From contig CAZWEM010000006.1 of NCBI GenBank assembly GCA_964632315.1, positions 1 through 64,000 of the forward strand: a stretch of 64,000 nt of DNA, in the 5' to 3' direction. Positions 10,728 to 24,072 of the stretch are shown here, one piece after another. How positions within the stretch are numbered: position 1 is the stretch's first letter; every line of letters starts with the position of its first letter. The stretch comes from an uncultured archaeon. GTDB taxonomy: Archaea; Asgardarchaeota; Lokiarchaeia; Sigyniarchaeales; SOKP01. The notes under the pieces are model-generated. The model saw only the letters and a list, made by a program, of their open reading frames with translations, was not told where the DNA came from and ran no database searches. The translations under genes were made by a program, and so were the position numbers.

Positions 10728-12020
10728 TTATTCTATTATTTCTGGAATTACGAATTCTTCTTCGGATTGCATGTTTGATTCCTCTGCAATAAGATCATAA
10801 TTCACGTGTCTGATACTGGTGAAGAAGTATAGTATGACCAATACTACTACCCCAAGAATCCCACATATGAAGAATAGATTTGCAACACCAAGGAATTCTC
10901 CTAAGGGTCCAGCTATTAGGGCTCCTACAGGGGTAATTACCATTGAAAACGTGCTGTCAATAGAACCGACTCTTCCAAGCTTTTCATGAGGTACTATGGT
11001 TTGTTGTATGGTTTGATAAAGCGTGTTCACGATCGGTAGCATGAATCCCATGATATATGCCATTACCATCATATATAAGAATGCTCTATAAGGAGCCAAT
11101 GCCAACATAGAATAAGCGATCATTACGATTATCAACACGCTGAAAGTTACCTTGATCTTCTTCTTCCATTTCTTTTTTAAGGTAGTGAGTAATGCTCCAC
11201 TGATGATCCCTCCCTGAAAGCCCACGGACATTAGAGCATATTCAAAGGCAGTAGCATCATGCAACACTGCTGCAAAGTATGGTAGTAAAGTACTTAATGG
11301 TTGGATCAAGAAATTCAAGAGCATGGCCATTATCATTAGGATGATGAAACCAGGAATGGTTTTTAACGTCTTGAATCCGTCACTAAATTCTTCTATAAAT
11401 CCGCTGTGATCTTCAACTTGATCTTGTTTAAACCTTACTAAGGGAATAGTGATAAAGACAAGAGGAACAAATGCAATAATAAAAGTAATCACATCAACCC
11501 ATAATGCTTGCGAAACGGTCATGAATACCAATAAAATGGCTGCTAACATTGGACCAATAATCTGCATGACTCCATTGAATAAGAAATTTAATCCATTAAC
11601 TCTAGTCAATTTCTCTTTAGGAACCATGGTCGGCACTACAGCGTTAACAGTGGGCTGATGGAATGCTTGAAAAGCACTTCGAAGAGCAATGAACAAGAAA
11701 ATGATCCAAACATTAGAAAATCCCATTGCTAAAAATATAATTAACGCCAAGGTTGTTATTGCTTGTAATGAATCTGCTAGCATTATAATGATCTTACGAC
11801 TGTGCCTGTCAGAAAAAACGCCTGCAAGGGGCATCAGAACGACCATGGGAAAAATGTAGAAAAAGTTTGCCAGAGCTAACACCATGGGGCTCCCAGTCGT
11901 GAGCGTCAAGTACCACATTATAACAAATTGAACGACCATTGAACCGAGCAGAGAAAATGTCTGCCCGGCCCAAAAGGTCATGTATTGTCGAAAACTATTC
12001 TTGGTAGGAATGATTTCCAT
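10728..12020 (-). CDS. MFS transporter (DHA3/MefA-like)
   Basis: WAGQTFSLLGS, AGVFSDRHSRK, LGRVGSID; paralog of its neighbours. Confidence 0.92.
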   Translation of the reverse strand: MEIIPTKNSFRQYMTFWAGQTFSLLGSMVVQFVIMWYLTLTTGSPMVLALANFFYIFPMVVLMPLAGVFSDRHSRKIIIMLADSLQAITTLALIIFLAMGFSNVWIIFLFIALRSAFQAFHQPTVNAVVPTMVPKEKLTRVNGLNFLFNGVMQIIGPMLAAILLVFMTVSQALWVDVITFIIAFVPLVFITIPLVRFKQDQVEDHSGFIEEFSDGFKTLKTIPGFIILMIMAMLLNFLIQPLSTLLPYFAAVLHDATAFEYALMSVGFQGGIISGALLTTLKKKWKKKIKVTFSVLIIVMIAYSMLALAPYRAFLYMMVMAYIMGFMLPIVNTLYQTIQQTIVPHEKLGRVGSIDSTFSMVITPVGALIAGPLGEFLGVANLFFICGILGVVVLVILYFFTSIRHVNYDLIAEESNMQSEEEFVIPEIIE

Positions 12021-12032
12021 TGCTCTGATCCC

Positions 12033-12944
12033 TCACAACCTATCTATTAATTTAAAAAGTACATTTAACACGTCGTCTATCTCCCCAGTGTACTTGAAAA
12101 TACCTTCCTCCAAGTCTCCATCAATACCCTCCGCTGCGAGCTCATAGATCATGTTTTCTGCGAACTCTTCTGATTTGTTTAATGCTTGAGCGAGTTTATC
12201 AATTGGGATGCTTTTGTGAAGCTTGATCAACCCTGTTATGCGCTTTTTAATTCTTTCCTTATCCTCTGCTGAGGATGGTTGAAGTACATCCGAGACGACT
12301 ACTTTCCCTCGCTTCTTGCCAAGATTTATAGATCCATCGATTCCAGCTTTTTTCAAGGATTGTTCGATTCGATCTCCTATATCCTCTATCCCTGTTTCTT
12401 CAACCGTTCTTTCTATGATATCTCCCAATTTTTCCAGCTTTGCAACATCTCCAATATTCTCTTTAACAAATTGCATCGACTTGCGGACTAACTCCGATAC
12501 TGAAGATCCTAATTTTTCCGACCATTCGCGCCATTCATCACTCATTTCAGGATCCACGTAGATATTGATCCTTTTCGCCTTTTCTTGCGCTTTCTTAGCA
12601 CGATGCTTAGATTCTGCAGCTCGACTTTTTAATTCAGCTATTCTTTCTTCAAGATCCGCAATTTTATCCATGTCTCGCTCGTAACGTTCTTTTTCTTTCT
12701 CAATGACTCTTTCTAACTTTTCTAAATATTTCTGTCGCTTGGCTTCGATTTTCTCGTTCATATCATCCGTTCTTGACTGAATCTCTTCTAAATATTCCCT
12801 ACGTAATTCCTCCATTTCATCATCATTATATTCATCTGAGGTTGGTGCAGTTTGTGGTCTTGGTGGCATAGGAGGCTCTGGAGGTGATTGTTCACCTCTA
12901 TTTTCATTTTCTTCTTCCCAATTTTCTTCTTTTTTATCTGACAT
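12033..12944 (-). CDS. Coiled-coil protein with ribbon-helix-helix-like and C-terminal PCI/winged-helix-like domains; putative regulator
   Basis: RINIYV..EW.EW...LGSSVSELVRKSM (RHH pattern); SIPIDKLAQALN....AENMIYEL...GIDG (PCI-type WH pattern); long E/K/R coil. Confidence 0.6.
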   Translation of the reverse strand: MSDKKEENWEEENENRGEQSPPEPPMPPRPQTAPTSDEYNDDEMEELRREYLEEIQSRTDDMNEKIEAKRQKYLEKLERVIEKEKERYERDMDKIADLEERIAELKSRAAESKHRAKKAQEKAKRINIYVDPEMSDEWREWSEKLGSSVSELVRKSMQFVKENIGDVAKLEKLGDIIERTVEETGIEDIGDRIEQSLKKAGIDGSINLGKKRGKVVVSDVLQPSSAEDKERIKKRITGLIKLHKSIPIDKLAQALNKSEEFAENMIYELAAEGIDGDLEEGIFKYTGEIDDVLNVLFKLIDRL

Positions 12945-13993: not shown

Positions 13994-14368
13994 TTGAAGA
14001 ATGTATATGTTATTGAAGATAATGAGAAAAACATGAAATTGTTTAGAGCCATACTAAAACTTATTCCTGATTTAGAAATATATGAAGAGTCGAAAGGTAA
14101 CTTAGGTTTAGAATTAATTAAGTCAGGGGAACCAGATCTTATAATTTTAGACATCCAATTACCAGAAATGAATGGAATTGAGATTTGTAGTGAGCTAAGA
14201 AAGTTAGATAAGTTTAAAGATACTCCAATTATTGCAGTTACCTCTTTCGCAATGAAAGGAGATAAAGAAAGAATACTAAAAGCGGGATTTAATCAATATG
14301 TTTCTAAGCCAATTAAAGTAAAAGAATTCAGAGAAATTGTAAAACGCTACTTAAATCTCATGGATTAA
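13994..14368 (+). CDS. Single-domain response regulator (CheY/DivK-like receiver)
   Basis: IEDN, PDLIILDIQLPEMNG (phospho-Asp), IIAVTS, YVSKP. Confidence 0.95.
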   Translation: MKNVYVIEDNEKNMKLFRAILKLIPDLEIYEESKGNLGLELIKSGEPDLIILDIQLPEMNGIEICSELRKLDKFKDTPIIAVTSFAMKGDKERILKAGFNQYVSKPIKVKEFREIVKRYLNLMD

Positions 14369-14539: not shown

Positions 14540-16027
14540 TCAATGCGAAATTAGTCCTCTTTGTTTGAAAATATCTTTCAATTCGGAGATTACTTGAGAT
14601 CTTATATTATCCTTAGTCATTTTGTTATATACTAATTTTGGTGGCGGTGGTGGTGGTTTTAGATCTTCAAGAGAAAAAAAATTCTTTTTCGGAGCCATTG
14701 GAGGTTTCGGATGTTCACTGGGGGATTCAATTGATTTTGCTTCCACTATGGAATTTCCAATAGGTTCTAGAGCACTTTTGATTTTGTTTATTGTTTCTTT
14801 ATCCATTTTTTCACTCGCAATTTTTTCTTGAGAGGATGGAATTGGTAATTCATTTAGTCTTTTTGGAGGACCATTTCCTTTGAATTGTTTTGATCGTTTT
14901 ATATCACCATCTGATTTAGATTTTTTCTTTCCTTTCATCTGTTTATCTGAAGTTTGAGTAGAAGAACTTATATATTCTAAGGGGACTTTCTCAAATGGTA
15001 CTGAAAAAAGTGATTGGGAGATATCTGAAGGTGCTAACCTCTGAAGTAATCTTTTTACTTCCGATAATTCTGTAGCGACTTTATCCATTAATTTAAGATT
15101 GATATCCAATATTTTTTGGAGTTTCGATTCAATTTCAGGTATAAGTATATTTTCATGATTTTCTTTTGCGAAGATATTTTTTATACTCCTTGTTATTTCG
15201 GGTTCACTAGAATAAAAATTAAAAATGCTTGTTGGAATTATCTCAAAATTCCATGATTTTGAGCTATTCATTAAAACGTTACTTATCTTATCAGTTAGAT
15301 ACTCAACTCTTATTTGATAATCGGGATCACTAACTATGTCGGAATCTGCTTTATTTAGTAAAATTTCAATATACGGATTTTCTTCTAAGAAAGTTAAAAT
15401 ATCTACAATATCTTGAAAATACTGAAGCGCATCCTCGTATCTTAAATCATCTTGAGAATCAAATACGAAAATTAGCACATCAAGATGTACGAAAAAATTC
15501 TCTGGAGTAGACAAATATTCTTCAATGTGATCTTTCTGACCTCCTAAATCCCATAACACCAAATCTAGCTTCTCAGATTGAAATTCTTCTACATTAGATC
15601 CGATAGTTGGTTCTAAGTTGATCATATCATTATAATTATAATCGTTAAATAGTCTATTTATTAATGAAGTCTTTCCAGCATAATCTAATCCTGCAAACAC
15701 GACTTTCATTTTTGGTTTCTTTAAATAAATACTCCTCTTATTCCAAGCGTTAGCAATAAGATATGAACTGATTAATGCTCCTTTAAATACTTGTTCTTCG
15801 ATAAATGCCTTTTTACTTAATTTTTTATATTCGGAAGCTTTTATCGTTGAGAGATCTCGTATTGTTTCAATTTTTAGCTTTTTAAACTTTATTAAATTTT
15901 CCTCAGAAACACCCTTTAGGATGTTAACATCCAAATCTAATATAGCTTTTAGGCTAGTAGGATAATATTCAATCTTAAGAAATCGATCACTAAAAAATTT
16001 TATCAATCTTTTGGCTGATTCAGACAT
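14540..16027 (-). CDS. Multidomain Arf-like small GTPase: HhH-like N-terminus, G domain, coiled coil, polyproline C-terminus
   Basis: GLDYAGKT, EPTIG, WDLGGQ, NKAD, PTSI; LKGV....KFKKLKIETIRDL; PPPPPP near the C-terminus. Confidence 0.88.
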   Translation of the reverse strand: MSESAKRLIKFFSDRFLKIEYYPTSLKAILDLDVNILKGVSEENLIKFKKLKIETIRDLSTIKASEYKKLSKKAFIEEQVFKGALISSYLIANAWNKRSIYLKKPKMKVVFAGLDYAGKTSLINRLFNDYNYNDMINLEPTIGSNVEEFQSEKLDLVLWDLGGQKDHIEEYLSTPENFFVHLDVLIFVFDSQDDLRYEDALQYFQDIVDILTFLEENPYIEILLNKADSDIVSDPDYQIRVEYLTDKISNVLMNSSKSWNFEIIPTSIFNFYSSEPEITRSIKNIFAKENHENILIPEIESKLQKILDINLKLMDKVATELSEVKRLLQRLAPSDISQSLFSVPFEKVPLEYISSSTQTSDKQMKGKKKSKSDGDIKRSKQFKGNGPPKRLNELPIPSSQEKIASEKMDKETINKIKSALEPIGNSIVEAKSIESPSEHPKPPMAPKKNFFSLEDLKPPPPPPKLVYNKMTKDNIRSQVISELKDIFKQRGLISH

Positions 16028-16226: not shown

Positions 16227-16877
16227 ATGCAAATTTCAAATTCAACTGAGTTAGAGGTTGAAAAATCAAAAGGTTTTAAAATGACCTTAGAAAAAAATCC
16301 ATTTATATTAATAATTGGCAAATATGATCACACACTTGGTCCACGATCTTTGTTCACCTCTATTCCATTAAATGGAGATAATTTCATAAGAAATCTATTA
16401 AGAGACGCCTTAAATACAAAAAATAAGTTTGTTATAATTGATTTTGCGAGATTTTATGCTCAAATTTATAAGATAGAAGTTCCGGATAGTTCAGCAAGAG
16501 GAGGAAAGCAATTATATGCTATAATAATGTTAAGAGATTCAGGTTATCCTTTTATCCCTATTTTACATTTTAAACGAATTGAAATGCTTTTCCATAAAAT
16601 TGACAATAAACAGATTCTCTCTAATAATAAAGCCGCATTTAATCATTTTTATAATGAAATCAATGAGATCTACCAAAAAAAAGGTGAAATTCTTCCTGTA
16701 GAATCCGTAAATCTTCAAATCCGAAGTGGAGTGAATACAATTCAAGGGTTTTGTGAGATAATACTAGAAAACCTAAAAAAAGATGATTACTCAAAAGAAG
16801 AAACTATTACTCATATTGAAATGATGCTTGATTCATGCAGTGATATTATAGACGCTCTGGAAATTAATTGCTCTTAA
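16227..16877 (+). CDS. Folliculin/SMCR8-like longin (uDENN) domain fused to a degenerate HisKA (DHp) domain
   Basis: YDHTLGPRSLF and VPDSSARGGKQLYAI. The C-terminal NLQIRSGVNTIQGFCEIILE aligns with SHELRTPLNAIIGFADLLLE of the adjacent kinase. Confidence 0.7.
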   Translation: MQISNSTELEVEKSKGFKMTLEKNPFILIIGKYDHTLGPRSLFTSIPLNGDNFIRNLLRDALNTKNKFVIIDFARFYAQIYKIEVPDSSARGGKQLYAIIMLRDSGYPFIPILHFKRIEMLFHKIDNKQILSNNKAAFNHFYNEINEIYQKKGEILPVESVNLQIRSGVNTIQGFCEIILENLKKDDYSKEETITHIEMMLDSCSDIIDALEINCS

Positions 16878-16918: not shown

Positions 16919-19102
16919 ATGCCTTTTCTTTTAGAAGAAATAGAAAGAGAATTTGCAATTCAGGCAAGAGAAAAGATTGAAGAAAAAATTAAGGTTATTA
17001 GTGAAATCTTAAAGGATGCTATCGTACAAGTTGATCACAAGGGAAAGATTAACTTCTGTAATCATTCAGCGGAAATATTATTTGGATATTCTAAGCAGAA
17101 ATTGATAGGAACGAAGATATATTCATTAATTTTCAGAGAAAATCATACAAATAATATTAAAAAAAAATTCCTCAACTTTCTCAAAACAGGATACAGCAAT
17201 CTCATTGAGGATTTAAATGACATGTATATCCCAAGCAAAAAAAATCTCAAAATTCCTGTTGAGATTTCGATAAATCTAATAAAAATAGATAAAAAATCTA
17301 ATGCAATTGCAATTATTAGAGATGTGTCTAAAAGAAAAGAAAGCGAAAGAATATTAAATGAAAACCTTAAGTTTCAGAGGCTTATAGCCTCCATTTCCTC
17401 CGGATTCTTAGGAAATGTTGATATAGACGATACGATTATTTCTACTTTTCAAAGAATAGGAAGAGAAGTCGGTGTCAGTCGCGTTTTTATATACTTATAT
17501 AATGATAATAAAAAATTGCTTAAAGTTCCTTACGAATGGTGTGTGAAAGGTGTAAAGCCTCATATTGAGAAGTATATGGAATATTTTACTAATAATAATC
17601 CTTGGGTAATTGATAAATTAATGGATGGTGAAAAGGTAATTGTCAATAATGTTAATGATCTCCCAAAGCAAGCAAACAACTTCAAAACCCATATGATAAC
17701 TTTAGGAACTAAATCAAATATCATACTTCCTTTATACGTTGAAGGAAGAATAGTAGGATTTATTGGTTTTGATGATCATAAAGATTATAGAGAATGGAAT
17801 CAAGAAGAAAAAACCCTTCTTCAAATTACATCTCAGATAATCGGGTTTGTCCTAGAGCGAAAAAATCATCTTGATGAATTAAGAAAATCCGAAGAAAAAT
17901 ATAGAACTATATTAGAAAGTATAAGAGAAGGATACTTTGAAATTGATCTAAATGGCAATTTCACTTTTTTTAATGATGCTTTATGTGATCTTACAGGATA
18001 TTCAAGAGAAGAACTATTTAATTTGAATTATTCGGAATTATGCGACGAGAAAACCAATCGATATCTCGTTAATGAGATCACTAAACTGGTTGAAAGAGAT
18101 GACACATTTACAATTTTAGAATACACTCAAATAAAGAAGGATAAGAGTGAAGTAAATCTCGAATCATCGATTTATTTGATGCATGATTATGAAAATGAGA
18201 TTATTGGAATTAAGGGAATGATAAGAAATATTACTGAAAGGAAAAAATCAGAAGCTCTAAGAAAGCAATTCAATCAAAAATTAGAAGAAGAAGTAAAGAT
18301 AAGAACTAGAGAATTAGAGGATGCAATGAAGAAACAAAAACTCTATTTGGATCAAATTGTAAAAGCATCACAATTTAAAACAGAATTTCTAGCAACAATG
18401 TCTCATGAGTTACGAACTCCATTAAACGCAATAATAGGATTTGCAGATTTATTATTAGAAGGTGTGTATGGCTTCCTTAATGATGATCAAACAGATTTCA
18501 TTATGGATATCAAAAACTCTGCAGAACATCAATTTGAAATGATTTCGAACATATTGGACATTTCAAAAATTGAATCAGGTAACCTTTCATTAAAAAGAGA
18601 GCAAATTGAGCTTTCTCCGATTATAGATCAAGTAATTTCAACAATAAGACCATTATTAAATAGTAAAAATCTGTCAATTCGAGTTAAAGGTTTTAGCGAC
18701 CATAAAACTATTCTTGCTGATAGGATTAAATTGAAGCAGATTTTTTATAATCTTTTAAGTAATGCTGTTAAATTTACCGATAAAGGGACTATTACTATTG
18801 AGATTGTTGAAAATAAAGATAATTGGAAATTTAACGTTATTGATACTGGAATAGGAATAAGAAAGAGTGATTATAACTTGATTTTTAAAGATTTTAAAAG
18901 AGTCGAATCTGATTATGTAAGAAGTAAACAAGGTGCGGGATTAGGCCTATCTCTTACTAAAAGAATTATTGAACTGCACGGAGGTACTATTTCTTTCACA
19001 AGCAAGTATGGTGAAGGCAGTTGTTTTTCATTTTCAATCCCAAGGAAAATAAATCTTTATGATAATTTACAAAATCTAAATGAGTTTTTACTCTCACTAT
19101 GA
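16919..19102 (+). CDS. Cytoplasmic sensor histidine kinase PAS-GAF-PAS-HisKA-HATPase
   Basis: MSHELRTPLNAIIGF, NLLSNAVKFT, DTGIGI, GAGLGL, HGG; PAS and GAF segments; no TM. Confidence 0.95.
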   Translation: MPFLLEEIEREFAIQAREKIEEKIKVISEILKDAIVQVDHKGKINFCNHSAEILFGYSKQKLIGTKIYSLIFRENHTNNIKKKFLNFLKTGYSNLIEDLNDMYIPSKKNLKIPVEISINLIKIDKKSNAIAIIRDVSKRKESERILNENLKFQRLIASISSGFLGNVDIDDTIISTFQRIGREVGVSRVFIYLYNDNKKLLKVPYEWCVKGVKPHIEKYMEYFTNNNPWVIDKLMDGEKVIVNNVNDLPKQANNFKTHMITLGTKSNIILPLYVEGRIVGFIGFDDHKDYREWNQEEKTLLQITSQIIGFVLERKNHLDELRKSEEKYRTILESIREGYFEIDLNGNFTFFNDALCDLTGYSREELFNLNYSELCDEKTNRYLVNEITKLVERDDTFTILEYTQIKKDKSEVNLESSIYLMHDYENEIIGIKGMIRNITERKKSEALRKQFNQKLEEEVKIRTRELEDAMKKQKLYLDQIVKASQFKTEFLATMSHELRTPLNAIIGFADLLLEGVYGFLNDDQTDFIMDIKNSAEHQFEMISNILDISKIESGNLSLKREQIELSPIIDQVISTIRPLLNSKNLSIRVKGFSDHKTILADRIKLKQIFYNLLSNAVKFTDKGTITIEIVENKDNWKFNVIDTGIGIRKSDYNLIFKDFKRVESDYVRSKQGAGLGLSLTKRIIELHGGTISFTSKYGEGSCFSFSIPRKINLYDNLQNLNEFLLSL

Positions 19103-19117
19103 AAAGGTGGAAGTATA

Positions 19118-21253
19118 ATGACCCAAGATGAAAATTTACTAAGAAGAGAAAATATAAGAGAAATTATGCAAATCGCAAAAAATTGGTCTAATTTAGAGAC
19201 ACTTATTTCAAGTGTAACTTCTAAATTAATTAGCTATACCGATAGCGATGAAGCAATACATGCTTCGCTAAGAGACATAACAACATTGACTAACGTCGAT
19301 TATGCCTTTCTTTTTCAGTTGGATGAAAGTAAAGATTTATTTATAAATACCCATGATTGGTATCGTGAAAGAATTCCATCAAAAACAAGGTTCTTCCAAA
19401 AAGTTGAATTATCGAAATATCCATGGTGGGAAGCTCAATTAAAAAAAGGCAGAGTCATTAAAATTGATGAAATCACTTCACGCTCAGAAGAGGGTGTAAA
19501 ATTAAAAGAATTAATGATTACAAATGATATTAGTTCACTGGTTATCTATCCACTTTTCATTAAAACAAAACTTATAGGCTGTATGGGTTTTGCTAAATTA
19601 ATTCATACCTCAAAATGGAATGAACTTGAAATGATAATTTTGAAATTATCGTCGCAATTGATTGGGAATACTTTAGAGCGCCAGAAAATTGAAAAACTAC
19701 TAAAGGAATCCGAAGAGAAATATAGACTCATTATTGAAAATATCAATGATTTAATTTTTATCATCGATCAACAATTTCAGATTGAATATATTAACGAGGA
19801 AATGGTTTATAAATTACTTGGGTATCAAATTTCTGAACTAATTGGGAAAAACAGTTTAGATTTTATACACCCCGGAGAAAGGGAGAGATTAGTTGGCTTA
19901 TTGCGAAATGAAGTAGAATATAATGGTTCAAAAACCGAGATGAGATTTAAACATAAGCGTAATGATTGGATATGGTTTGAATGTAAAGGTAAGCATTTTA
20001 TGAGCAAGACTAACCAATCTAAGTGGTTACTTTCATCCAGAGATATATCAGATAGAAAAATAGTAGAGGAAAGGTATAAAAATTTATTTGAAAAATCCCC
20101 TAATGCGATATTACTGATAGATTTTAACGGAAAGATTATTGATTCTAACTCAACAGTAGAAAGAATTTTTGGATTTACTAAAGATTTCTTTATTAAAAAA
20201 AACATCGATGATTTAAAAGAAGTCTTCTCGCTAGAAATGAGACATTATTTTAAATACATCTTTCAAGCATATTTTAAAAATATTTTCCCTGATCCAATCG
20301 AACTCGAAATAGAAAAACCAGATAACGAGAAAATTTGGATTCAAGTACAAGCTTCAATTATTAAACAAGTAAGCAAAACTCTTGTCCAATTCATTTTTGA
20401 AGATATTACGCAAAAAAAGAAAAGCAACTTGTTAGAAAAGAAATTTAAAAATGAGTTAGAAAATGAAGTAGCAATTAGGACTAAGGAGTTAAATGATGCG
20501 CTTGAACAACAAAAACTTTATTTAGAACAGATTGTAAAATCGTCTCGGTTCAAGACAGAATTTATGGCAACTATGTCTCATGAACTAAGAACACCCTTAA
20601 ATGCAATCATTGGATTCACAGATTTATTACTTGAAGGTGCATATGGAGACCTAAATGAAGAGCAAGAAGAGTTTATTTCAGATATCAAATCTTCTGCAGA
20701 TCATCAATTAGATATGATAAATAATATATTAGATATTTCAAAAATTGAATCTGGACAAGTAACACTTAATATTCAAAAATTTTCATTAAATTCACTTGTA
20801 AATCAAATCCTTTCAAGTTTAAAACCACAATTTTCTAAAAAAGACTTGGAGATAAACCTTAAAAACTTAAATGACGAAATATTTATTTACGCTGACCCTA
20901 TAAAGTTTAGAGAAATTTTATTAAACCTTTTAAGTAACGCTCTAAAATTTACAATGAAAGGAAAGATTTATTTAACAATCCAAAAAGATTTCTCGAATTG
21001 GGTTTTTAAAGTTCGGGACACTGGAATTGGAATTGATAGAGAAGACTTCCCCCTTATTTTCAAAGAATTTAAAAGAGTAAATTCGACGTATGTGCGTTCT
21101 GTTCCTGGTACTGGACTAGGATTATCGTTAACAAAAAGATTAGTAGAATTACATGGAGGAGAAATTAATTTTTTTAGTATAATAGGTTCAGGGACCACAT
21201 TTACATTTAACATTCCAAGAAAGTGGGAATATGATATCAAAGAAAAAAATTAA
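19118..21253 (+). CDS. Cytoplasmic sensor histidine kinase GAF-PAS-PAS-HisKA-HATPase
   Basis: MSHELRTPLNAIIGF, NLLSNALKFT, DTGIGI, GTGLGL; FIHP PAS motif; kinase core closely similar to the upstream gene. Confidence 0.95.
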   Translation: MTQDENLLRRENIREIMQIAKNWSNLETLISSVTSKLISYTDSDEAIHASLRDITTLTNVDYAFLFQLDESKDLFINTHDWYRERIPSKTRFFQKVELSKYPWWEAQLKKGRVIKIDEITSRSEEGVKLKELMITNDISSLVIYPLFIKTKLIGCMGFAKLIHTSKWNELEMIILKLSSQLIGNTLERQKIEKLLKESEEKYRLIIENINDLIFIIDQQFQIEYINEEMVYKLLGYQISELIGKNSLDFIHPGERERLVGLLRNEVEYNGSKTEMRFKHKRNDWIWFECKGKHFMSKTNQSKWLLSSRDISDRKIVEERYKNLFEKSPNAILLIDFNGKIIDSNSTVERIFGFTKDFFIKKNIDDLKEVFSLEMRHYFKYIFQAYFKNIFPDPIELEIEKPDNEKIWIQVQASIIKQVSKTLVQFIFEDITQKKKSNLLEKKFKNELENEVAIRTKELNDALEQQKLYLEQIVKSSRFKTEFMATMSHELRTPLNAIIGFTDLLLEGAYGDLNEEQEEFISDIKSSADHQLDMINNILDISKIESGQVTLNIQKFSLNSLVNQILSSLKPQFSKKDLEINLKNLNDEIFIYADPIKFREILLNLLSNALKFTMKGKIYLTIQKDFSNWVFKVRDTGIGIDREDFPLIFKEFKRVNSTYVRSVPGTGLGLSLTKRLVELHGGEINFFSIIGSGTTFTFNIPRKWEYDIKEKN

Positions 21254-22767
21254 ATTACATACTTACCAATTAAATTATTCGCTTGAGTCGCAATAAGTTT
21301 TAATTGATCATAATCATTTTCTAAAATTGCCCTAACTAAATTTACTTTCAATTTTTTTACTCTTTCAAGTGTGTTAGAAAACTCTTGTTTGATTTTTTCA
21401 TATAAATTATCCATTCGATCGTATAGATTTTTTGCATGTTCATTATCGAAGGTAGTGAGATTAATGATCATCTCTTCATATGACTGATTAATTTCACGCA
21501 ACCAATCTTTCCCTATGCCTTCAATTAACTTTAAATCATCAAGATTACCCGTTCGAGAAGCTTCTTTAAACTTTTCTCGGTGTTCATTGAATAAATTCTC
21601 GAAAAAATTCTTGATTTTAATTTCAATTGATTCTAAATTTATATTTGGATTTAGGAAAAGAGTTACAGTGTAATCCTCATATCCAAAGACTCTTAACTTA
21701 AGATTAGTTCCTTCCAATCCTAATTTTGTCAATTCTTGAATATTTAATTCCAATGAAAACTTTTCAAGTGCACTAATGAACATTGGTACTAAATCTAAAT
21801 CAAACCCCGCTTGAATTTCAGATTTCAACGTTTTTGGTAATAAATAATTTTCAAGTGTTCCATTTGCAATTTCAAATTTAGTCAAAAGCTTTCCATCTTT
21901 ATCAGCAATAAACACACCAAGAAATGATGGCATTGATTCAATTTGATAATCCTCCAATTGAATAAAATCTTCTTTCGAATATGAATCTATAATCGCGTTA
22001 AAATGAGATCTACCTTTTTCAGTTAAAGAAACTAACTTTTTATTTGTTTTATCATCAACAATTATATGATCCTTACGCAATAGGCTTTCTACAAGATAGT
22101 CTACTAATTTTTTGGGTCTATTTAGCTTGATATATAAAGAATCCAAAGAGATAACGACCTCGTTATGAATTAAGGCTATTAATTTAATCGACTCATCAAT
22201 TATATTGAATATCAAGCCTTCCTCTAATAGTTCCTCTTCTAAACAAGATTTTATTATCTCAATAAAGTATGAAAATGTTTGCTTGAAATATTTTTTTTTT
22301 AAGCTTGTAAAAATAAACCTTGTTAATTCTGTTTTTGGAAATTCTGATCTAATGATAGCTTTAATTTCCTCTATTTTTTTTGGTGTAATTAAATCAATTT
22401 TGTGCATTAGCACGTAGACTATTGTTGATGAAATTAATTCATCCCTTACCTCTAAAACCTTTTTAATGAATTCTCTAATATAATCTAAGGACAAACTTAC
22501 ATCCATCACAAGAATTACGACTCTCGTGTTATAAAAAACCTCCTTATCATCAGAATTTAGCCATCGTTCATTCTCTTGTCCAGCTAAATCAAAAACACCA
22601 ATTTCTTCACTTATTCCAGGCAATCTCATTATTAATGACTCTTCTCCAAATGTTGGTTCAAGAGCATACTCAAGAAGTCTATTAGAATTTTCTCCTTCAA
22701 AGAATACTTTGCGTAGAGTTGTTTTTCCCGCTCCAGGTGGTCCAATGAAGATTATCTTTTTACTCAT
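21250..22767 (-). CDS. Rag/Gtr-like small GTPase fused to winged-helix and longin/roadblock-like domains
   Basis: GPPGAGKT, EPT, DLAGQ, HKID, FTS; LTEKG wing motif; GVFIADKDGKLL...LVPMFISALEKFS.EL. Confidence 0.8.
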   Translation of the reverse strand: MSKKIIFIGPPGAGKTTLRKVFFEGENSNRLLEYALEPTFGEESLIMRLPGISEEIGVFDLAGQENERWLNSDDKEVFYNTRVVILVMDVSLSLDYIREFIKKVLEVRDELISSTIVYVLMHKIDLITPKKIEEIKAIIRSEFPKTELTRFIFTSLKKKYFKQTFSYFIEIIKSCLEEELLEEGLIFNIIDESIKLIALIHNEVVISLDSLYIKLNRPKKLVDYLVESLLRKDHIIVDDKTNKKLVSLTEKGRSHFNAIIDSYSKEDFIQLEDYQIESMPSFLGVFIADKDGKLLTKFEIANGTLENYLLPKTLKSEIQAGFDLDLVPMFISALEKFSLELNIQELTKLGLEGTNLKLRVFGYEDYTVTLFLNPNINLESIEIKIKNFFENLFNEHREKFKEASRTGNLDDLKLIEGIGKDWLREINQSYEEMIINLTTFDNEHAKNLYDRMDNLYEKIKQEFSNTLERVKKLKVNLVRAILENDYDQLKLIATQANNLIGKYVI

Positions 22768-22770
22768 CTT

Positions 22771-24072
22771 TTATACCTCCTTTTTAAAATGAAGATGATC
22801 TCTAAATTTTTGCTTTATTTGTCCAACAATCCAAATTAGCTTATTAGCAGATAAGCTTTCAGATATACAGATTAAATTTTTTAATCCAAATAACGTGAAG
22901 TTTATATTGTTGAGGATTATATTTAGACCACTTAAACTAGAGATAATTACATGGTTTACTTTCTCTTTTTTTGCCATTAATTCAAATGTCTTAATTATTT
23001 GAGTGATTAATTTATGAGAATGGTTAATCATTAGTGTGTCGAAATCTTTGGTCATAGATTGAACTATAATGCTATCATTTAGATTTGTTAAAAAGAACAT
23101 AGTCTTTGAAAAATCTATCAATTGAGAGTCTAGAATTCTTTTGAGGTTTGAAGTTTCCTGAGATTTTTCGCTTAAAATCTCATAAAAAGCATTATATAGC
23201 CCATAAATCTTGTCAGGGTGAATACTAGTATAATATAAAGGATTTTGAAAAGCTGATTCAAGTTCCTTTTTAAGATTATCGAAGGTTTTTTCCATAACTA
23301 AATCAATCTTGTGAAAAAACAGAATTAGTTGTGTAGAGTACCCTCTCACATCAATTATTTTTCTAATTTTACTTATTTCCCTCAAAATCTCATCTTTATT
23401 TTCTAACCAACCGGTATAATCAAATATATAAATAATATAATCATTATTGTCAAATGCTAGAATGTGTTCTTGGTCATCCTCGTTTTCAAGCAAATAAGAA
23501 AGCTCCTGTCCTGAGGAATCAAATAATCCAATTTTTAAATCCAACCAAGAATACACACTGGGTGAAATACCTCTTGTTGGCTCAAGTGGATTATATAATA
23601 AATCTTTAGGATCTAAACCCTCGAAAACGATTTTTTTAATAGACGTTTTTCCCGTTCCGGCCCTACCAAGGATGAGGATCTTTCCCGATGATTCTTTTTT
23701 ATAAAATATTACTGCTCGTTCTAAAAAAATTTCATTTCTTTTGTCTACAGGTTGATTAAACACTTCTCTTGCGAATTTTGTTAGCTGAGTTTTAAAACTT
23801 GAAATTTCAATACTTTCCTTTGCTCCAAGAAAGAGGGTTATAATCTCATATCCAACTTTTGGAACTCGAGTTTTATCACAATATGATAATAACAATAGTT
23901 CTTTATAACTCGTTTCAATTAATTCTTCTTGGGAAAAATCGTCGCTATACGCAAAAGTCATGCAGATTTTATTAACTAATTCTTCAGAAACATGAAGTTC
24001 CATAGGAAATTTCACATCTATTTGCGAGCCAAGCTTTGTATCCCAACTAAATAAGACGATTCCTGTTGGCAT
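22771..24072 (-). CDS. Longin-like domain, Rag/Gtr-like GTPase and roadblock-like C-terminal domain
   Basis: GIVLFSWDTKLG N-terminus; GRAGTGKTSIKKIVF, EPTRG, DSSGQ, HKID, YTSI; C-terminal alpha/beta domain. Confidence 0.8.
   Translation of the reverse strand: MPTGIVLFSWDTKLGSQIDVKFPMELHVSEELVNKICMTFAYSDDFSQEELIETSYKELLLLSYCDKTRVPKVGYEIITLFLGAKESIEISSFKTQLTKFAREVFNQPVDKRNEIFLERAVIFYKKESSGKILILGRAGTGKTSIKKIVFEGLDPKDLLYNPLEPTRGISPSVYSWLDLKIGLFDSSGQELSYLLENEDDQEHILAFDNNDYIIYIFDYTGWLENKDEILREISKIRKIIDVRGYSTQLILFFHKIDLVMEKTFDNLKKELESAFQNPLYYTSIHPDKIYGLYNAFYEILSEKSQETSNLKRILDSQLIDFSKTMFFLTNLNDSIIVQSMTKDFDTLMINHSHKLITQIIKTFELMAKKEKVNHVIISSLSGLNIILNNINFTLFGLKNLICISESLSANKLIWIVGQIKQKFRDHLHFKKEV

Follow-up and report, generated by a model that had tools for sequence, protein, structure and literature searches.

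A predicted GAP-type longin ending in a putative pseudo-DHp hairpin, encoded beside histidine kinases and Rag-like GTPases in an Asgard archaeon

Folliculin- and NPRL2-type longins switch off Rag GTPases in eukaryotes. Eukaryotic GAP longins continue into DENN and pair with a different longin subunit. One report (PMC12290439) presents 15 Asgard longins, treats the identity of their GTPase partners as an open question and mentions no DHp at their C-terminus. Asgard GTPases are reportedly not generally found in operons with regulators (PMC10933270). A bacterial parallel exists in the actinobacterial conservons CvnA-D (PMC13343842, PMC13621833, PMC4316618), which, like the cluster described below, combine a kinase or kinase-like sensor, a GAP candidate of the roadblock/longin superfamily and a small Ras-superfamily GTPase. 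Unlike that cluster, they have a separate roadblock protein without DHp and no response regulator, and their GTPase is MglA-like, not Rag-like.

The DHp, the dimerisation domain of histidine kinases, has been put to use without a working ATPase domain in several settings. The phosphotransferases Spo0B and ChpT are CA-less DHp proteins. Archaeal REC-PAS/GAF-HisKA proteins without HATPase are known as well (PMC5847659). Pseudo-histidine kinases have also been described, among them DivL (PMC4211667) and PsmA (PMC12963549). DivL of Caulobacter has Tyr at the His site and retains PAS and CA along with every other kinase box; it binds the single-domain receiver DivK~P through its DHp surface, the CA domain being dispensable in vivo (PMC4211667).

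Pseudokinase DHp domains, CA-less HisKA proteins, Asgard GAP longins and operons of kinase, roadblock protein and GTPase are thus known already, and the fusion of a longin to a DHp is apparently undescribed: within an incomplete coverage of the literature, we found no description of such a fusion, nor of a two-component link for Asgard longins. Here we analyse a window of 64,000 nucleotides from an uncultured archaeon of the order Sigyniarchaeales (contig CAZWEM010000006.1), in which one gene encodes a protein of this kind, P0001. It is well supported that P0001 carries a His-less, ATPase-less hairpin of HisKA derivation on a GAP-type longin.

The comparison with DivL goes some way. In both, the phospho-His of the DHp is replaced by a non-phosphorylatable residue, and the dimeric DHp (predicted here) is kept together with the surrounding patch. 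Unlike DivL, P0001 is a hairpin only, with Leu or Met at the site, Gln for the catalytic Glu and a longin instead of PAS and CA. The sequence-only reading of the window had likened the protein to DivL; the replaced His bears this out, and the absence of PAS and CA leaves the likeness loose. Spo0B, ChpT and the archaeal REC-PAS/GAF-HisKA proteins keep a phosphorylatable His, which is missing from P0001 and from about 95% of its family. With FLCN, NPRL2, SMCR8 and the Asgard Folliculin/SMCR8 longins (PMC12290439), P0001 shares the predicted fold, the GP motif and invariant arginines, and it is encoded beside Rag/Gtr-like GTPases. Unlike the eukaryotic ones, it ends in a kinase-derived hairpin and is predicted to homodimerise.

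A longin gene among kinases, a receiver and GTPases

The features of the locus are as follows.

13994 to 14368, plus strand: single-domain receiver, candidate docking partner (Pfam Response_reg, 5e-26).
14540 to 16027, minus strand: 495-aa Gtr1/RagA-Arf-like GTPase, divergently transcribed (Pfam Gtr1_RagA, 8e-25).
16227 to 16877, plus strand: longin and putative pseudo-DHp gene, P0001 (ORF and translation, 216 aa).
16296 to 16679, plus strand: predicted GAP-type longin domain, residues 24-151 (AF2 topology, structural matches, invariant G38-P39).
16680 to 16700, plus strand: linker K-K-G-E-I-L-P, residues 152-158 (invariant K152 and P157).
16701 to 16778, plus strand: putative pseudo-DHp helix alpha-1, residues 159-184 (models, and hhalign register with the HisKA H-box).
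16713 to 16715, plus strand: codon CTT, Leu163, in the column of the phospho-acceptor His (sequence, profile alignment, column survey).
16794 to 16871, plus strand: putative pseudo-DHp helix alpha-2, residues 190-215 (models).
16919 to 19102, plus strand: soluble histidine kinase of PAS-GAF-PAS layout, H-box and HATPase intact (Pfam HisKA 2.5e-19, HATPase_c 3.6e-28).
19118 to 21253, plus strand: second soluble histidine kinase, GAF-PAS-PAS (Pfam HisKA 3.8e-22, HATPase_c 3.1e-27).
21250 to 24072, minus strand: convergent pair of Gtr1/RagA-like GTPases, with 505 and 433 aa (Pfam Gtr1_RagA 2.5e-12 and 1.3e-17).

P0001 ends at residue 216 and its gene stops 41 nt before that of the first kinase, on the same strand, so that no HATPase domain is present, as the sequence-only reading had stated; Pfam gives no HATPase match in the protein, and an NCBIfam scan gives no match. 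A split gene, in which the hairpin and the next gene would be one broken kinase, was rejected: the next gene has its own PAS/GAF sensors and an intact DHp, and the 216-aa form is conserved among 271 homologs.

AF2 models the full-length protein at pLDDT 79.8, with a longin at 24-151, a low-confidence hinge (pLDDT below 50) at 156-159 and two helices at 159-184 and 190-215. The eukaryotic-signature domain announced for the N-terminus thus takes a definite form, an FLCN/NPRL2-like longin. Its top VIA matches include the GATOR1 entry chains 9o5a_H and 9v0j_A (Z 12.3, 133-135 aligned residues, 3.2-3.4 Å), the dimeric Lokiarchaeal longin 8yqg (Z 11.6) and the folliculin-complex chain 6nzd_H (Z 11.5); we take the first two to be NPRL2 and the last to be FLCN, the entries being titled by complex only. 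A chain of a yeast SEA complex entry follows at Z 11.3, and Foldseek gives the longin fold match a probability of 1.00. Pfam Folliculin scores 19.6 bits (E 9e-4), under its cut-off of 23.3. The catalytic arginine finger of GAP longins is R164 in FLCN and R78 in NPRL2; in the P0001 family R59 and R91 are invariant and R40 is nearly so, and GAP activity is putative. The invariant G38-P39, at the start of strand 2 (from residue 38), is the GP motif, reported to be confined to GAP-type longins and one class of longins from Asgard archaea (PMC12290439). That the modelled N-terminal domain is a GAP-type, FLCN/NPRL2-like longin is well supported.

For a view of the surroundings, we took 20 further genomes of the order and inspected 10-20 kb about the family gene in each. 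Most of them share one conserved cluster, in which Rag/Gtr-like GTPases, PAS kinases and the receiver accompany that gene. At least one histidine kinase is found within 10 kb in 18 of the 20 regions, the other two being short contigs. An ortholog of the 495-aa GTPase falls inside the 20-kb region at 18 of 20 loci, and at 14 it is the immediate neighbour of the family gene; the GTPase pair is conserved too. The most conserved member of the cluster is the receiver, with orthologs of 61-87% identity at 13 of the 20 loci. In the window it lies on one side of the cluster, whereas these orthologs lie on the other, beyond the GTPase pair; this points to a local rearrangement in the source genome.

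Several neighbours vary between loci. A further Gtr1/RagA-like GTPase of about 293 aa stands between the longin-DHp gene and the kinases at L035:10685-11563 and in the equivalent position at 13 other loci; it is absent from the window, where the kinase follows after the 41 nt. Six loci encode X-DHp-REC proteins of about 290 aa (L035:7194-8036, L044:7178-8056, L045:12566-13426, L054:6220-7089, L043:12559-13425 and L042:17618-18481), made of an N-terminal region, a DHp-like hairpin and a C-terminal receiver, with no ATPase. Their hairpin mostly retains the His (Tyr in one), Pfam detects the receiver only, and in most of the six loci the gene adjoins that of the 495-aa GTPase. The RHH-HisKA-REC proteins of Lokiarchaeum (PMC5847659) may be their counterparts. 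A gene for a 303-aa EAP30/Vps36-family (ESCRT-II-like) protein (12033-12944, minus strand) is found some 1 kb upstream of the window's receiver gene; four tandem MFS transporter genes precede it, of which the Pfam scan covered the last only (10728-12020).

Of 301 genomes sampled across the phylum, 33 have the family, and these belong to a single order: 28 of 68 in one family-level group (f1) and 4 of 7 in another (f2). Within the source genus a match is found in 9 of 27 sampled genomes, many of the non-matching ones being 95-100% complete; this tally reflects either a patchy distribution or the limit of the search's first filter.

Descent of the C-terminal hairpin

The sequence-only reading rested its DHp assignment on a gap-free match of NLQIRSGVNTIQGFCEIILE (P0001 residues 162-181) to SHELRTPLNAIIGFADLLLE (residues 495-514 of the kinase at 16919-19102). 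The match is there, with 7 identities and 8 conservative pairs in 20 positions. With the second kinase, P0001 aligns by BLASTP over 47 residues spanning both helices (E 0.002). The check proposed at the time, an HMM search against HisKA, has a divided outcome. For the single sequence it falls short: the P0001 fragment scores 12.7-12.9 bits against Pfam HisKA (PF00512; E 0.12-0.13), under the gathering cut-off of 26.9, and that score is reached by no single family member (best E 2e-4). Yet profile against profile it holds. The family's C-terminal alignment, compared by hhalign with 97 HisKA domains from the source genome and related genomes, gives a probability of 91%, E 1e-6 and a score of 34.9, against a mean of 10.2 (sd 2.0, maximum 18.2) for 200 column shuffles and 9.8 for the reversed alignment; the score thus lies about 12 sd over the shuffles. 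The alignment pairs N162-L163 of P0001 with the S-H of the HisKA H-box, which places Leu163 where the sequence-only reading had put it, at the phospho-His position.

Other searches lead to the same family. HisKA is the only Pfam family that matches most of the family C-termini (22 of 31 fragments, best E 2e-4). When a 67-column C-terminal profile is run against all 12,402 stop-to-stop ORFs of the genome, its best non-self matches are histidine kinases in register (top E 0.008), and 5 of the 14 HisKA-bearing ORFs fall within the top dozen; the reverse search, with a HisKA profile derived from the genome, reaches P0001 at E 26 only. Among PDB sequences the top match of the C-terminal profile is the histidine-kinase DHp 7n0e_A, in register, at E 0.056, a value that for a 64-residue hairpin is not significant alone; the full-length family profile gives only chance-level receiver matches there, and no kinase. 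Finally, the metagenomic protein P0146 provides a transitive link, since it matches both the family profile (1.9e-11, library-wide) and Pfam HisKA (1.6e-37). Taken together, the profile, Pfam-majority, PDB, genome-search and P0146 evidence, with the conservation described below, identifies the tail as a diverged HisKA DHp. Descent of the 57 C-terminal residues (159-215) from a HisKA-type DHp is well supported, as a remote and significant homology at the level of sequence.

P0146 has a striking layout of its own. Over 556 aa it has six tandem HisKA-like hairpin units, detected by Pfam HisKA in 6 stretches, each with the motif S-F-(K/N)-(L/I)-R, in which Phe replaces the phospho-His; it has no ATPase domain and, judged by these motifs, is an array of pseudo-DHp domains. 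As for the origin of the P0001 hairpin, a recent duplication from a neighbouring kinase is unsupported: unlinked kinases resemble the hairpin at least as closely as the neighbouring ones do, and the best genome kinase match of its profile is an unlinked kinase, C11.

The degenerate H-box on alpha-1 of P0001 reads N-L-Q-I-R-S-G-V-N-T-I-Q-G-F. Relative to HisKA, the family has Leu or Met for His at the H column, Gln for Glu at H+1 (Q164 in P0001), Ile for Leu at H+2, Ser for Thr at H+4, Gly for Pro at H+5 and Val or Ile for Leu at H+6, while Arg at H+3, Asn at H+7, Ile at H+9, Gly at H+11 and Phe at H+12 are the same in both. The 271 homologs, of about 212-230 aa (all within 195-275 aa) and 58-84% identity, share the near-invariant motif L-P-L-E-S-x-N-(L/M)-Q-I-R-S-G-(V/I)-N-T-I-Q-G-F-C. 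By the alignments, it is well supported that the hairpin has lost the phospho-acceptor His, the neighbouring catalytic Glu and the entire ATPase domain; it is likewise well supported that it retains the hairpin itself, the a/d core and most other H-box positions, structural and docking ones.

A survey of homologs for a retained His, also proposed at the outset, was informative. In 159 distinct members the column holds L 106, M 41, I 4, H 3, V 2, F 2 and K 1 times, and about 95% of the family is non-His at the phospho-acceptor position; the exhaustive search of representatives yields 34 clusters only. His stands at the aligned column in the divergent longin-hairpin relatives P0132 (S-H-H-V-R), P0134 (S-H-K-I-R), P0149 and P0151. 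The acidic H+1 residue is absent even from His-keeping relatives. P0153 has Tyr at the column and matches Pfam HisKA directly (E 0.0015). His kept in a few deep branches fits a genuine phospho-acceptor ancestry followed by loss, and the alignment suggests that the His was lost secondarily in the P0001 family. The distant His-keeping relatives may be of the CA-less DHp kind; their surroundings hold hybrid kinases, receivers and Rag-like GTPases. Three more proteins (P0135, P0137 and L052:686-1858, minus strand) have the layout sensor-longin-hairpin, kinase-like without the catalytic parts.

Modelled dimer and candidate docking face

Modelled alone, the hairpin reaches pLDDT 94 and includes the second DHp-like helix that had been expected (190-215). 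Its best Foldseek superposition is on the DHp of HK853 (4jav_A, TMq 0.79), at 1.2-1.3 Å over 58 columns; SrrB, YycG and DivL are also among its matches. For these 64 residues no match has E below 0.7, and only the ranking and the rmsd are meaningful. Failure to fold as a DHp hairpin had been named as the outcome that would tell against the assignment; in the models the hairpin forms. Foldseek rows of the full model for LOV-histidine-kinase chimeras were discarded (rmsd about 26 Å).

The homodimer of P0001, whose prediction the sequence-only reading had also called for, is modelled with an ipSAE of 0.61, against 0.00 for the best of three controls; in calibration, 20 of 30 solved homodimers reach this mark, as does 1 of 23 proteins whose structure is a single chain. 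Contacts are shared between the three runs to at least 90%, and the partner pLDDT is at least 77. The confident interface is restricted to residues 162-211: on alpha-1 it follows the a/d heptads 165, 169, 172, 176, 179/180 and 183, and on alpha-2 residues 190, 193/194, 197, 200/201, 204, 207/208 and 211. Because residues 165, 172 and 200 each contact their own counterparts, the alpha-1 helices are parallel and the two-fold axis runs along the bundle, as in a kinase DHp. P0001 is therefore predicted to homodimerise as a parallel, two-fold symmetric four-helix bundle of the kinase DHp type. The pass may partly reflect likeness to solved kinases, since solved kinase dimers exist. No confident longin-longin contacts are found in the model.

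Leu163 lies outside the modelled interface and would thus be exposed, as a phospho-His would be. Outside it, too, are about half of the hairpin columns that are invariant or nearly so, and combining the alignment with the homodimer model reveals an exposed invariant patch on alpha-1: Q164, S167, G168, N170, T171, G174 and F175. R166 (+3), N170 (+7) and F175 (+12), all invariant in the family, correspond in sequence to R553, T557 and Y562 of DivL. These three DivL residues are required for DivK binding, which their mutation abolishes (PMC4211667). In HK853, numbered from His260 as phospho-His (after the H260A mutant in the title of 6rh8), the engineered specificity residues A268, A271 and T275 (title of 4jas) fall at +8, +11 and +15; the first two positions are invariant in the P0001 family, as T171 and G174. 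We infer that the exposed invariant face of alpha-1 is a retained docking surface for a receiver or CA domain. Conservation of the H-box remnant could instead reflect a requirement for folding or kinking of the hairpin rather than a binding site.

Readings of the hairpin's function

P0001 would be a two-domain adaptor, made of a longin and a pseudo-DHp. The parallel bundle of the model puts the two longins at one of its ends and would make the protein a constitutive dimer of GAP-type longins. The alpha-1 face around and below the former His would bind the single-domain receiver, in a phospho-dependent, DivL-like manner, or the neighbouring kinases. Output of the PAS/GAF kinases would in this way reach the longin domains, which would hand it on to the Rag-like GTPases whose genes flank P0001 on either side. 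Of the two kinds of partner the receiver is favoured, by the DivL positions, by the HK853 specificity positions and by the receiver's lack of an output domain, since a receiver without one has to work through a protein. Docking of the receiver or pairing with the kinases' DHp, as proposed in the sequence-only reading, would also suit the conserved gene cluster and the 61-87% identity of the receiver between loci. The reading we favour, and regard as fairly probable, is that of a DivL-like receiver sensor linking the kinases to the longin pair and on to the Rag-like GTPases. Its fullest form, in which P0001 is a physical coupler and the receiver, charged by the kinases, binds the bundle as receiver~P and switches the GAP activity that the longin pair would exert on the Rag-like GTPases nearby, is a possibility that we put forward tentatively.

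The hairpin may instead do nothing but dimerise. A degenerate DHp would then join two longins, replacing the DENN and partner-subunit contacts of eukaryotic GAP longin pairs, with no contact to two-component proteins; the kinases and receiver would have other targets in the pathway, such as the GTPases themselves or the X-DHp-REC proteins. The modelled homodimer clears its controls with an interface limited to the hairpin, the Lokiarchaeal longin 8yqg was solved as a dimer, and archaeal and eukaryotic longin/roadblock domains work as dimers (PMC10933270), all of which suits this alternative. A mere dimeriser, however, has no need for invariant exposed residues at H+1, +4, +5, +7, +8, +11 and +12, nor does it explain why the gene stays beside kinases and a receiver in most of the 20 genomes and also in the distant His-retaining relatives. 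We consider it rather unlikely.

Mixed bundles, heterodimers of the hairpin with a DHp supplied by the adjacent PAS kinases or by the X-DHp-REC proteins, are improbable. With one half inactive, such four-helix bundles would inhibit phosphotransfer or divert it, and would hold the longin at the sensor. The closeness of alpha-1 to the neighbours' H-box (7 identities and 8 conservative pairs in 20), the 41 nt that separate the P0001 and kinase genes on one strand and the several DHp-bearing proteins of each cluster speak for them; the confidently predicted homodimer and a hairpin no nearer to its neighbours than to an unlinked kinase, with C11 as best profile match, speak against, and DHp heterodimerisation is to our knowledge rare.

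Catalysis without the His is a further alternative, and a very improbable one: P0001 would be a receiver phosphatase or phosphotransfer relic acting through Ser167 (H+4) and Arg166, and its His-retaining relatives would be Spo0B/ChpT-like phosphotransferases. R166, S167 and N170 are indeed invariant, Ser167 sits at the T/N phosphatase position of HisKA, and P0132 and P0134, which retain the His, have hybrid kinases with receiver domains as neighbours; but the canonical residue is T/N, not Ser, and relatives that keep the His lack the acidic H+1 as well. Moreover, DivL, which has been studied best among DHp domains without a His, shows neither kinase nor phosphatase activity (PMC4211667).

Chance resemblance, the tail being a generic coiled-coil hairpin unrelated to HisKA, is hardly credible, for although the Pfam HisKA scores are sub-threshold and the Foldseek E-values insignificant for 64 residues, the profile-profile score stands some 12 sd above column shuffles, every match is in register, His-bearing intermediates and P0146 bridge the gap, and two-component proteins abound in the gene cluster.

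Among Asgard GTPases, the P0001 family is an exception to the reported scarcity of operons with regulators: a predicted GAP-type longin is fixed beside three Rag-like GTPases, and it comes with a recognisable relic of a histidine kinase. The locus also names concrete candidate partners for a small soluble protein, namely the receiver, two kinases and three GTPases. Were the favoured coupling real, the minimal, hairpin-only pseudo-DHp would join the short list of pseudo-histidine kinases, and the His-retaining relatives of the family would mark a route from phosphorelay component to pseudo-DHp sensor. P0001 may thus link bacterial-style phospho-signalling to eukaryote-style GTPase signalling; if so, a eukaryote-type GTPase/GAP module would once have been wired to a prokaryote-type phosphorelay, and the cluster would represent an archaeal precursor, under two-component control, of the nutrient signalling that runs through FLCN/GATOR1 and Rag.
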